Positions 59-5,534 of a DNA stretch of 5,534 bases are shown piece by piece. A program made the position numbers and the translations under genes. Within the stretch, counting starts at the first letter, position 1. The number at the start of each line of letters is the position of its first letter. The DNA comes from Escherichia phage G4. The notes beneath the pieces were generated by a model, which had not been told where the DNA came from, did no database searches, and saw only the letters and a program-made list of their open reading frames with translations. The stretch lies in sequence record OR492646. One strand, 5' to 3'.

Positions 59-1723
59 ATGTTTAAAACTCATTCTGATTACTTCAACAAACCAAACATC
101 GACGCAATCAAACCGCTCGTCGAAACTGCTGGTATGTCTATTCTTGCTCAATCTCCGGGTCTCCGTATCTGGAAACAGTGCAATACTCGCATCAAACTAC
201 TGGAAGAAATCCTCGCCCACTACACTAACGGCATCCGCCGTGATGATAATGGTGACTTCTGGATGAATCCAAACTCTCAACTCGCAACCACTATTGCCTA
301 TCGTGCTCACCACAAAGGCCACAACCCTAAATTCAAACAATACCCAGAGTCATTTACCCTGGACGATATTATTACTGGCAAGCCAATACCTCAAACTGCC
401 CTTGGTGAATTACAACTCTCCGATGAAATCGGTGAAGATTACCGTCTCACAGTCCTCTCCATAATCGAAGAATTGCAAGAATGCTACGACGTGCTCGGAC
501 AACTTGATATTAATAACACTATAGACCACAAACCCCTCGGTAATGACCACTGGAACCTCCTCTATGAAAAACCCGTATACAAACATTGGTATCAACTCGT
601 TTCAAAACGACCCCTTAAAGATATCCGCGCCGATTACAACTATGCAAAAGCGAAGGGTATTAAAGATGAATGCTCAAAAATCTTGGAGGAGTCAACTATG
701 AAGTCTCGACGTGGCTTTACCGTTCAAAGATTAATGAATGCTATGCGTACTGCCCACACTCAGGGCTGGTATGTTGTATTCGATACTCTTACTCTAGCCG
801 ATGACCGCTTAAAGGATTTCTATGATAACCCCAATGCTCTTCGTGACTACTTCCGTGATATTGGTCGTATGGTGCTTACTGCCGAAGGTCGCTCGGTGCA
901 TGACTCATCTGCCGACTGCTATCAGTATTTTTGTGTGCCAGAGTATGGTACACAGCACGGTCGTCTACATTTCCACGCAGTGCATCTTATGCGCACACTT
1001 CCTTTGGGTTCTCTGGACCCTAACTTCGGTAAGCTGGTACGCACTAATCGGCAAATAAATAGCTTGCAAAACACGTGGCCTTATGGTTACTCTATGCCCA
1101 TCGCAGTCCGGTACTCCCAAGACGCATTCTCCCGCGCTGGCTGGCTCTGGCCTGTTGACACAAAGGGTGAACCCCTTAAAGCTACCTCGTATATGGCCGT
1201 AGGCTTCTACGTTGCTAAATACGTTAACAAAAAATCAGATATTGACATGGCCGCAAAAGGCCTAGGGAATAAACAATGGAACAATTCGCTCAAAACCAAG
1301 ATCAACTTCATACCCAAGAAAGTGTTCAGAATCCGAATGTCCCGCAATTTCGGAATGAAACTACTATCAATGGCTCACCTGTCAGCGGAAACCCTGATGG
1401 AACTAACCCAAGTGGGTTACGACGTGACCCCGTTCAACAACATCTTGAAGCAGAACGCCAAGAAAGAGCTCAAATCGAGGCTGGCAAAGAAATCTGTCGC
1501 CGACGTTTTGGAGGCGCAACCTGTGACGACCAATCTGCTAAAATTCATGCGCAATTTGACCCGAACAATCGGAGAGTCCAACCTACAGAGTTTTATCGCT
1601 TCAATGACTACGAAATTAACAAGTACGGATATTTCTGATGAAACCAAAAACTACGTTGCTGCTGAAGGAATTGCTGTTGCTAACCTACGAATTAAATCGA
1701 AGTGGACTGCTGGTGGAAAATGA
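59..1723 (+). CDS. A: Replication initiation protein A (HUH rolling-circle endonuclease), 554 aa
   Basis: The ORF track gives 32..1723. The in-frame ATG at 59 is preceded by a strong Shine-Dalgarno GGAGG (48-52) at 6-nt spacing, whereas the ATG at 32 has no RBS and overlaps the putative -10. The translation contains the HUH motif (GRLHFHAVH) and a long C-terminal region nearly identical to phiX174 A as I recall it (e.g. [43 protein letters not shown]). It stops with TGA at 1721-1723, overlapping the C start ATG (ATGA). Confidence 0.93.
500..529 (+). other. Origin of viral (+) strand rolling-circle replication; 30-nt A-protein recognition and nick site CAACTTG|ATATTAATAACACTATAGACCAC
   Basis: This is an exact match to the conserved 30-nt phiX174-type origin as I recall it, embedded in gene A (it encodes [10 protein letters not shown]). 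Protein A nicks between G506 and A507. Confidence 0.85.
698..1723 (+). CDS. A*: A* protein: in-frame internal restart within gene A (C-terminal 341 aa of A)
   Basis: The internal ATG at 698 is in the A frame and preceded by a strong SD GGAGGA (685-690) at 7-nt spacing. It begins MKSRRGF, the same position as the phiX174 A* start. Whether this phage expresses A* cannot be determined from sequence. Confidence 0.5.
1276..1638 (+). CDS. B: Internal scaffolding protein B, 120 aa, encoded in an alternate frame entirely within gene A
   Basis: The ORF track entry 1276..1638 starts with ATG. Its acidic, Q/E-rich protein ends ...[17 protein letters not shown]...[16 protein letters not shown], closely matching phiX174 B (...[10 protein letters not shown]...EFYRF...GYF) at the same length. 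Confidence 0.9.
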
Positions 1724-2556: not shown

Positions 2557-3840
2557 ATGTCTAACGTTCAAACTTCTGCGGACCGTGTACCTCATGACTT
2601 ATCTCACCTTGTCTTTGAGGCTGGTAAAATCGGTCGCCTCAAAACTATCTCTTGGACGCCTGTTGTTGCTGGTGACTCTTTCGAGTGTGATATGGTTGGC
2701 GCTATTCGCCTTTCCCCTCTTCGTCGCGGCCTCGCTGTTGACTCACGTGTTGATATCTTTTCTTTCTACATTCCACACCGTCATATCTACGGTCAGCAAT
2801 GGATTAATTTTATGAAGGATGGCGTTAATGCCTCTCCTCTTCTTCCTGTTACATGTTCCTCTGGTTGGGGCTCTGCTGCTTATCTTGGTACCATTCCGTC
2901 CTCTAACCTTAAGGTGCCTAAATTCTTACATCAGGGCTATCTGAATATTTATAACAACTACTTCAAACCGCCTTGGTCTGATGACTTAACTTACGCCAAC
3001 CCATCCAATATGCCTGCTGAGGATTATAAATGGGGCGTACGTGTCGCTAACCTGAAATCTATCTGGACCGCGCCACTTCCACCGGATACCCGTACATCTG
3101 AAAACATGACTACTGGTACATCCACTATTGACATTATGGGCCTCCAAGCCGCATATGCTAAATTACATACGGAACAGGAACGTGATTACTTCATGACCCG
3201 TTACCGTGACATTATGAAAGAGTTCGGCGGTTATACATCCTATGATGGTGATAATCGTCCTCTTCTGCTCATGCGCTCTGAGTTTTGGGCCTCTGGCTAT
3301 GACGTAGACGGTACCGACCAATCTTCTCTCGGTCAATTCTCTGGACGCGTCCAGCAAACCTTTAATCATAAAGTGCCACGCTTTTATGTTCCTGAACATG
3401 GCGTAATTATGACTCTGGCGGTTACTCGCTTCCCGCCGACTCATGAAATGGAAATGCACTATTTTGTAGGCAAAGAAAACTTAACCTATACCGATATTGC
3501 TTGTGACCCTGCACTGATGGCTAACCTGCCACCGCGTGAAGTGTCCTTAAAAGAATTCTTCCACTCCTCACCTGATTCTGCTAAATTCAAAATCGCTGAG
3601 GGCCAATGGTATCGCACACAGCCTGACCGTGTCGCTTTCCCATATAATGCTCTGGATGGATTCCCGTTCTACTCTGCTCTCCCGTCCACGGAACTAAAAG
3701 ACCGTGTACTGGTTAACACTGATAACTACGATGAAATCTTCCAGTCTATGCAGCTTGCACACTGGAATATGCAAACTAAATTTAATATTAACGTTTATCG
3801 TCACATGCCTACGACTCGTGACTCAATCATGACCTCGTAA
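2557..3840 (+). CDS. F: Major capsid protein F, 427 aa
   Basis: ATG at 2557 with an AAGGA SD 9 nt upstream. The ORF track's start at 2518 lies inside the palindrome. The translation MSNVQTSADRVPHDLSHL...RLSPLRRGLA...QGYLNIYNNYF...IDIMGLQAAYA...GQFSGRVQQT...KFKIAEGQWYR...PTTRDSIMTS is strongly similar over its full length to phiX174 F at the same 427-aa length. Confidence 0.97.
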   Translation: MSNVQTSADRVPHDLSHLVFEAGKIGRLKTISWTPVVAGDSFECDMVGAIRLSPLRRGLAVDSRVDIFSFYIPHRHIYGQQWINFMKDGVNASPLLPVTCSSGWGSAAYLGTIPSSNLKVPKFLHQGYLNIYNNYFKPPWSDDLTYANPSNMPAEDYKWGVRVANLKSIWTAPLPPDTRTSENMTTGTSTIDIMGLQAAYAKLHTEQERDYFMTRYRDIMKEFGGYTSYDGDNRPLLLMRSEFWASGYDVDGTDQSSLGQFSGRVQQTFNHKVPRFYVPEHGVIMTLAVTRFPPTHEMEMHYFVGKENLTYTDIACDPALMANLPPREVSLKEFFHSSPDSAKFKIAEGQWYRTQPDRVAFPYNALDGFPFYSALPSTELKDRVLVNTDNYDEIFQSMQLAHWNMQTKFNINVYRHMPTTRDSIMTS

Positions 3841-3849
3841 CGCAACAAA

Positions 3850-3955
3850 GGCCGCCCCTCTACTGGTCAGATACCTGCCCAATGTGGGGCGGACCGTGCC
3901 TACGGAGATACTTGAGTCTCCGATACATGGACGGCGAAAGCCGCCGTCCCTACTG
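3850..3955 (+). other. F-G intergenic structured region: candidate G4-type complementary (-) strand origin with three stem-loops and a CTG primase start site
   Basis: Seen in sequence: hairpin 3852-3858/3886-3892 (CCGCCCC/GGGGCGG); hairpin 3903-3908/3917-3922 (CGGAGA/TCTCCG, 8-nt loop); hairpin 3929-3936/3942-3949 (GGACGGCG/CGCCGTCC, 5-nt loop); then CTG at 3953-3955. The reverse complement of 3929-3954 reads AGTAGGGACGGCGGCTTTCGCCGTCC, which matches my recollection of the 5' end of the G4 primer RNA made by DnaG primase. Confidence 0.6.
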
Positions 3956-3976
3956 CAAAGCCAAAAGGACTAACAT

Positions 3977-4510
3977 ATGTTCCAGAAATTCATTTCTAAG
4001 CACAATGCTCCAATTAACTCTACTCAGCTTGCTGCCACTAAAACTCCGGCTGTCACGGCACCTGTTTTATCTGTGCCTGACTTAAGCCGCTCTACTATTA
4101 AAATCAATGCAACAACCACAGCCGTTACAACTCATTCAGGCTTGTGCCATGTTGTTCGCATTGATGAAACAAGCCCAACAAATCATCACGCTCTATCTAT
4201 TGCAGGTTCGTTATCAAACGTTCCTGCTGATATGATTGCTTTTGCCATTCGTTTTGAGGTCGCTGATGGCGTCGTTCCTACTGCCGTCCCGGCCTTATAC
4301 GACGTCTATCCAATCGAAACCTTCAATAACGGCAAAGCAATCTCATTTAAAGATGCTGTTACTATCGATTCACATCCCCGCACCGTCGGTAACGACGTTT
4401 ATGCGGGAATCATGCTCTGGTCTAACGCTTGGATCGCCTCTACTATCTCTGGCGTCCTCTCTGTTAATCAGGTAAACCGTGAAGCAACTGTTCTTCAACC
4501 TCTGAAATAA
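3977..4510 (+). CDS. G: Major spike protein G, 177 aa
   Basis: ATG at 3977 with an AAGGA SD 7 nt upstream. The translation starts [10 protein letters not shown] and ends [14 protein letters not shown], with an internal YDVYP...[26 protein letters not shown], matching phiX174 G (MFQTFISRHN...YDVYP...[26 protein letters not shown]...LQPLK). Confidence 0.95.
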
Positions 4511-4520
4511 GGATTATCCT

Positions 4521-5534
4521 ATGTTTGACGCTATTGCTGGCGGTATCGCCTCCGCACTTGCTGGAGGCCTTACAGGTAAATTATTTGGCGGCGGTCAGTC
4601 CGCCAACTCTACTGGAATTCAAGGCAACGTCCTTGCTTCCGATAACAATGTTGTAGGTGCTAATGATGCCGGTATTAAATCTGCTATTCAGGGCTCTACT
4701 GTTCCTAACTCTCAGGAAGCTGCCCCCTCCGCTATCTCTGGCATCCTTGCCGACTCTGGCAAGCATGCGCTCTCGTCTCTTACCGATGCTGGTGCAAATA
4801 AACTCATGGAGGCTGTCGGCCTTTCTAAGTCTGCCTCTGACAAGGGCAAGGACACAAAAGACTACCTCGCCGCCGCATTCCCCGATCTCAACCCATGGGA
4901 ACGTGCCGGCGCTGGCGCTTCTGGTGCAGGCATGCAAGACGCTGGCTTCCAAAATCAGAAAGAGCTAACCAAAATGCAGCTTGACAACCAAAAGGAAATC
5001 GTTAAGATGCAAAACGAAACCCAGAAGGAAATCGCTGGGCTTCAATCTGTTACATCACGCGAAAATACCAAGGATACTGTATATGCTCAAAATGAAATGC
5101 TCGCGTATAACCAAAAAGAGTCTATGTCACGCGTTGGCGCTATTCTCGAAAACACAAGCCTCACCAAACAACAACAAACTTCTGAAATTATGCGGCAAAT
5201 GCTTACTCAAGCTCAAACCGCAGGTCAATATTTTACGAATGAGCAAATCCAAGCGCTTACAAGAAAAGTTGGTGCTGATATTGATGCTGTTCGCGCTAAC
5301 ACTGCACGCACCCATGTAGAAATCGACCGCTCAAAACAGGAGGTTCAAAACTCCCGTTACGCTTCATCACAGGTAGGCAAAACCGCTAAGGACGTGTCCA
5401 ATGCAATTACTGATACAGCTGGTTCTATTGTTGATTATTTTCGTGGTGTTGATCAAAAAGTGGCAGACGTTTACAACAACTATTTCAAAGATGGTAAATC
5501 GAAAGGAATAGAATCCAATCACCGCTCCAAATAA
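4521..5534 (+). CDS. H: DNA pilot / minor spike protein H, 337 aa
   Basis: ATG at 4521 with an AAGGA SD 7 nt upstream. It has a Gly-rich N-terminus ([16 protein letters not shown]...KLFGGGQ) and a conserved central region (KDYLAAAFP...[27 protein letters not shown]...[14 protein letters not shown]...[20 protein letters not shown]) closely matching phiX174 H. The TAA stop is the last codon of the window. Confidence 0.95.

Follow-up and report, generated by a model that had tools for sequence, protein, structure and literature searches.

A near-identical counterpart of the G4 complementary-strand origin in the F-G spacer of phage genome OR492646

The complementary-strand origin of bacteriophage G4, oric, has served as the standard model template for the biochemistry of DnaG, SSB and polymerase III since 1978. 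The contrast in mechanism between phiX174, which primes its minus strand through a PriA primosome, and G4, which does so through DnaG and SSB, is well established; the phiX174 primosome site also lies in the F-G spacer. The origins of the two strands are known to be separate in G4. Priming at the G4 site requires only primase and SSB, and this has been established for G4 itself; it starts at the T of a CTG located 3' of three stem-loops and produces a primer of up to 28 nt (PMC6783573). For work on G4 oric, that paper cites Fiddes, Barrell and Godson 1978, Bouche, Rowen and Kornberg 1978, and Sun and Godson 1993 and 1998. In a review of mini-hairpin DNA, the motif GCGAAAGC is assigned to 'Hairpin I' of the G4 priming site (PMC13037366). 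St-1, phiK and alpha3 also have dnaG-dependent minus-strand origins (Sims, Capon and Dressler 1979, as cited in PMC13037366).

The whole stretch of DNA analysed here, the window, is sequence record OR492646 (5,534 nt), a complete G4-like microvirus genome that is circularly permuted as in G4. Judged by its sequence, it is a member of the genus Gequatrovirus in the Bullavirinae. A megablast search of 50,697 phage records returned ID11 and NC13 as full-length matches at 96.1-96.2%, and whole-genome alignment gave identities of 95.6% to G4 (V00657.1), 96.2% to ID11, 95.4% to ID12, 92.4% to ID52 and 80.4% to ID2. Since no record in the phage collection exceeds 96.2% overall, OR492646 would be a recombinant or belong to a lineage not yet sampled. 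At G4-type coordinates the genome carries intact genes A, D, E, J, F, G and H, in the G4 order. Every gene is on the + strand, which is therefore taken as the packaged viral strand. OR492646 differs from G4 by 242 substitutions and one 43-nt deletion (G4 2421-2463); its coordinates 3' of 2420 equal the G4 coordinates minus 43. The viral-strand origin is present as an exact conserved 30-mer, the gene A protein nick site CAACTTGATATTAATAACACTATAGACCAC, at 500-529 (+) inside gene A. Because this 30-nt nick site sits at 500-529, the viral-strand and complementary-strand origins are separate, as in G4.

Several features outside the complementary-strand origin can be recorded. The 43-nt G4 segment that is missing at 2420/2421 covers the 3' ends of D and E together with the D-J spacer (D-E-J junction, 2400-2470). 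In OR492646 the stop codon of D and the start codon of J overlap in TAATG (2432-2436), and E, which ends at 2465, encodes 103 aa. The same D-J junction is common to WA6, ID12, NC10, NC6 and ID52 (96-98% identity), and the annotation of ID12 matches it. The G4 segment itself looks like a local duplication (AAGGTGTCATGTAA ... AAGGAGTTATGTAATG). When differences are counted in 300-nt bins, the genome has a mosaic look within the G4 species: 1801-2400 is nearer ID12 (8 differences) than G4 (26), and the bins of 3601-4800 are nearer G4 and ID11 (33-36 differences) than ID12 (76). Just past gene J, the J-F spacer (2519-2545) carries a hairpin, GTGGGACCGCGGTCCCAC, followed by TCTATTT. This hairpin is conserved with G4 and, from a reading of the letters alone, resembles a post-J terminator.

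The spacer between genes F and G runs from the stop codon of F (3838-3840) to the start of G (3977). At 136 nt it is the longest in the genome, compared with 58 nt for H-A, 45 nt for J-F and 10 nt for G-H. These lengths, taken between verified intact ORFs, bear out the preliminary description, which had called it the longest non-coding stretch. Its features, and that of the adjoining gene, are as follows.

3841..3976, + strand: F-G spacer with the G4-type oric, read as single-stranded viral DNA; 135/136 identical to G4 3884-4019; fold z = -4.81
3850..3895, + strand: stem-loop III; outer stem 3852-3858/3886-3892, extended by 3850-3851/3894-3895
3903..3922, + strand: stem-loop II; CGGAGA / TCTCCG with an 8-nt loop, which holds T3913
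3929..3949, + strand: stem-loop I; GGACGGCG AAAGC CGCCGTCC; template for most of the primer
3927..3954, - strand: template region of the predicted 28-nt primer RNA, pppAGUAGGGACGGCGGCUUUCGCCGUCCAU; made from 3954 towards 3927
3953..3955, + strand: primase initiation triplet 5'-CTG-3'; aligns to G4 3996-3998
3965..3969, + strand: Shine-Dalgarno-like AAGGA, 7 nt 5' of the gene G ATG; a gene G signal and not part of the origin

The hairpins had been placed at 3852-3892, 3903-3922 and 3929-3949 in the preliminary description, and both the perfect inverted repeats and the minimum-free-energy fold recover them at exactly those coordinates. The repeats pair 3852-3858 with 3886-3892 (7 bp), 3903-3908 with 3917-3922 (6 bp) and 3929-3936 with 3942-3949 (8 bp). 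In its minimum-free-energy fold as DNA, 3841-3976 forms these three hairpins and no others, at -29.1 kcal/mol, compared with -16.3 +/- 2.7 kcal/mol for dinucleotide shuffles of the same region (z = -4.81; 0/200 as good). When the hairpins are folded singly, hairpin I is the strongest (z = -6.0, 86% of the ensemble), followed by II (z = -3.2) and III (z = -3.0). Stem-loop III also has an inner helix at 3864-3881, which is imperfect. The mini-hairpin motif GCGAAAGC is found in hairpin I at 3934-3941, its sole occurrence in the window on either strand. A 67-aa ORF (3882-4085) that starts within the spacer was dismissed; its ATG is not kept in the alpha3 clade (CAGTGT), and it overlaps gene G out of frame.

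Alignment of the spacer with G4 oric, the check suggested in the preliminary description, gives 135/136 identity, with no change in hairpin I, the CTG or hairpin III. The blastn match to V00657.1 extends over 261 nt at 98.5% (E = 1e-125). The one difference from the G4 spacer is T3913 in the loop of the middle hairpin, which is C in G4 and ID11. None of the other records compared shows T at this position, and loop II is already variable among the G4-lineage phages.

The annotation of V00657.1 lists an 'RNA primer of replication' at 3970-3997 and an 'origin of compl. strand synthesis' (rep_origin) at 3998. With the 43-nt offset, these features map to 3927-3954 and 3955 of OR492646. By this transfer of annotation, the primer start falls at 3954/3955, inside the range of 3950-3956 that had been predicted. 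The CTG that had been noted at 3953-3955, 3' of the last hairpin, is present, 4 nt past the stem end at 3949. CTG by itself is uninformative, as it has 132 occurrences on the + strand; it gains meaning because it is aligned to the annotated G4 start site. On the sequence, primer synthesis is predicted to begin opposite the central CTG base, T3954, and G3955 would not be copied. The primer computed from the window alone is AGUAGGGACGGCGGCUUUCGCCGUCCAU, 28 nt long, with the first C at position 9 and an A-free run at 9-26 (18 nt). It agrees with every published descriptor: the CTG-T start 3' of three stem-loops, the length, C9 and the A-free run (PMC6783573). The complement of 3929-3954 reads as RNA AGUAGGGACGGCGGCUUUCGCCGUCC, just as first written, and the G4 primer beginning that had been given was correct; the annotated 28-nt primer has two more bases (..AU).

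Near-identity to G4 oric, together with the mapped primer and origin annotation, thus supports the initial reading, and 3841-3976 is almost certainly a G4-type complementary-strand (minus-strand) origin, the classical G4 oric. As such the element is already known: OR492646 is a new G4-lineage genome that carries the textbook G4 oric. The near-identity to G4 also implies that DnaG and SSB should be sufficient on the OR492646 template. Likewise, the protein requirements and the start site on the exact OR492646 template would be those known from G4 biochemistry, T3913 notwithstanding.

The spacer is 136 nt in all of G4, ID11, ID12 and ID52. These four phages do not differ in hairpin I, the CTG or hairpin III except in one loop. 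The hairpin-I loop of ID52 is one base shorter (GCGTAGC), and an extra A in the downstream CCAAAAAGG tract keeps the spacer at 136 nt. Differences within the G4 lineage cluster in hairpin II and its loop, with one stem mismatch in ID12 and ID52. When conservation of the spacer was compared with that of the whole genome, it was higher against G4 alone (Poisson P = 0.016) and not against ID11, ID12 or ID52 (P 0.19-0.55). The conservation rate was dropped as evidence because the excess is seen against G4 only.

A homologous 135-nt cassette is located in the G-H spacer of the alpha3 clade (alpha3, NC_001330.1, 4960-5094; also L012, L014, L016 and L018-L027). An IMG/VR scan with the conserved core returned 16 genomes, of which 14 contained true homologues. 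Two matches, L015 414-436 (-) and L021 4851-4873 (+), were excluded; both have the 23-nt motif GGCGTAGCCGCCGTCCCTGCTGC, made up of the hairpin-I core and the CTG, but are otherwise unrelated in sequence. Given the pattern length and the size of the database, the motif in these microvirus-sized IMG/VR contigs of 5.4-5.6 kb is probably a chance match.

The origin cassettes were compared in an alignment of 17 closely related sequences, with the structure taken from one member. Hairpin I is paired in 17/17 homologues, with one clade-level compensatory swap from C-G to A-T. Two compensatory pairs occur within the alpha3 clade in the outer stem of hairpin III: four sequences have T-A in place of C-G, and one has A-T in place of G-C. 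Changes on both sides are thus seen in 3 pairs overall, which among such close relatives amount to few independent events. In the alpha3 clade the G4-type hairpin II does not form (cells paired, 51%). Over the whole structure, 82% of cells pair, compared with 30-47% when the partners are slid by 1-3 columns. RNAalifold offers an alternative, a local hairpin inside stem-loop III (CTGCCC/GGGCGG) combined with a long-range closing helix; with its two double substitutions, the alignment speaks rather for the long outer stem of hairpin III than for this arrangement. All 17 homologues keep the CTG and the TCCCT that precedes it unchanged. The hairpin-I loops GCGAAAGC, GCGTAGC, GCGTTAGC, GCGCAAGC and GCGTAAGC all fit the mini-hairpin consensus GCGN(N)AGC given in PMC13037366, in 17/17 genomes (alignment columns 100-107, corresponding to 3934-3941). 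In every homologue an AAGGA(G) block lies ahead of the downstream gene. The pattern of change suggests constraint on hairpin I, the CTG and the outer stem of hairpin III, whereas hairpin II would be either dispensable or specific to one lineage. This view of which hairpins matter comes from sequence comparison.

Folding cannot assign the strand or the molecule, because RNA and the minus strand fold equally well: the fold is also strong as RNA (z = -5.1, the same three hairpins) and as minus strand (z = -4.7). The grounds for assigning the element to + strand DNA are microvirus biology and the way the CTG is oriented. The Rfam covariance models gave no match at E <= 1 over the whole window on both strands, as expected for a DNA element. 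The hairpins might act mainly as RNA, either as a post-F terminator or as an mRNA-stabilizing or processing structure in the polycistronic late transcript; in a weaker form, an RNA role would be added to the origin function. The spacer is expected to be transcribed, because all genes are on the + strand, and its RNA would form the three hairpins, but no hairpin in 3841-3976 precedes a T-run. The sequences that follow them are ACCGTGCC, ATACATGG and CTACTGCA, and a promoter/terminator scan of 3600-4200 found nothing inside the spacer on either strand. An intrinsic (rho-independent) terminator was rejected on these two grounds, the missing T/U run after the hairpins and the empty scan. The F-G spacer of the alpha3 clade, just 33-36 nt, is itself terminator-like, with a short GC hairpin and TTT ahead of a ribosome-binding site, and some structure after F may therefore be generally useful. 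The origin cassette of that clade, however, follows G and not F and so is not tied to F expression, and the G4 element is experimentally established as a priming site (V00657.1; PMC6783573). It is very unlikely that the hairpins serve mainly at the RNA level; they may have an additional role in the mRNA, since the RNA folds just as well.

That the spacer is instead a phiX174-type site, at which PriA recognizes a hairpin and PriB, DnaT, DnaB, DnaC and DnaG then assemble, has a negligible chance of being correct: the phiX174 site occupies the identical genomic slot and is likewise hairpin-rich, and origin type does vary among close relatives, ID2 of the same genus having a phiX-like F-G spacer, but the phiX174 F-G spacer finds only chance 8-9-mers in the whole window (best 9 nt, E = 1.7), blastn matches to phiX-like phages end with gene F, and the OR492646 spacer, 135/136 identical to that of G4, has in alignment no blocks in common with the phiX174 spacer, unlike that of ID2. 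A phiX174-type primosome assembly site is thus ruled out at the sequence level by absent similarity. The contrast with phiX174 that had been claimed from the start holds at the same level, the phiX174 spacer being unmatched beyond chance. The similarity test is meaningful because ID2, in the same genus, carries a phiX-like spacer.

The F-G spacer of ID2 (Gequatrovirus talmos, DQ079869.1) is 99 nt long (3830-3928) and aligns with phiX174 861-970, not with the spacer of G4. The ID2 and phiX174 spacers share AAAAATTTTAATTTTT and GGTTGA.CAAGCG.AAGCGCG.TAG; their stem arms differ yet stay complementary. The OR492646 origin has no significant match anywhere in ID2. The type of minus-strand origin appears to have been swapped within one genus.

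With 3841-3976 read as a G4-type origin, a sequence of events can be proposed in which SSB phasing, DnaG binding, the CTG start and Pol III extension are taken from G4 biochemistry (PMC6783573). After infection, the circular viral (+) strand would be coated by host SSB. The three hairpins would resist and phase this coating, leaving exposed DNA beside them, and E. coli DnaG primase would then bind the SSB-origin complex without PriA, DnaB or DnaC. RNA synthesis would begin opposite T3954 and run leftwards through hairpin I, generating the predicted primer of up to 28 nt. DNA polymerase III holoenzyme would extend this primer round the circle to produce the replicative form.

A further step has been put forward as a proposal, not yet demonstrated (PMC13037366). 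SSB might induce hairpin I to change from its 8-bp form to a register-shifted mini-hairpin, which would exclude SSB and be recognized by primase. We consider this switch possible though somewhat doubtful. It fits the data in that the loop variation tolerated in hairpin I in both clades keeps GCGN(N)AGC.

For annotation, the value of the analysis is that OR492646 can be labelled with a minus-strand origin of the G4, primase-only type, whose start is predicted at T3954. The label does not follow automatically from taxonomy, because ID2, of the same genus, has a phiX-like spacer. Across the phages compared, the origin behaves as an exchangeable cassette: the G4 lineage carries it between F and G, the alpha3 clade carries it between G and H, and ID2 has a phiX-like spacer in its place. 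The cross-clade alignment also provides a compact natural mutagenesis map of the origin.

Compared with known systems, the element is closest to G4 oric. The F-G slot, the 136-nt length, stem-loops I and III, the CTG, the primer template and GCGAAAGC are the same in both. The differences are the C-to-T change at 3913 and the surrounding genome, which is ~4.4% diverged and is without the 43-nt D-J spacer segment of G4. The alpha3-type origins are homologous cassettes of similar length (135 nt) and share with it the 8-bp stem of hairpin I, the ...TCCCTNCTGC start region, the outer stem of hairpin III and the GCGN(N)AGC loop. They differ in their G-H slot, in the hairpin-I loop GCGTTAGC and in a stem pair that is A-T in place of C-G, and they are without the G4-type stem-loop II. 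The phiX174 primosome assembly site (n'/PriA) has in common with the OR492646 element the priming of the minus strand on the viral strand and the F-G slot; its sequence is unrelated, and it directs a PriA-dependent primosome as opposed to direct priming by DnaG and SSB.
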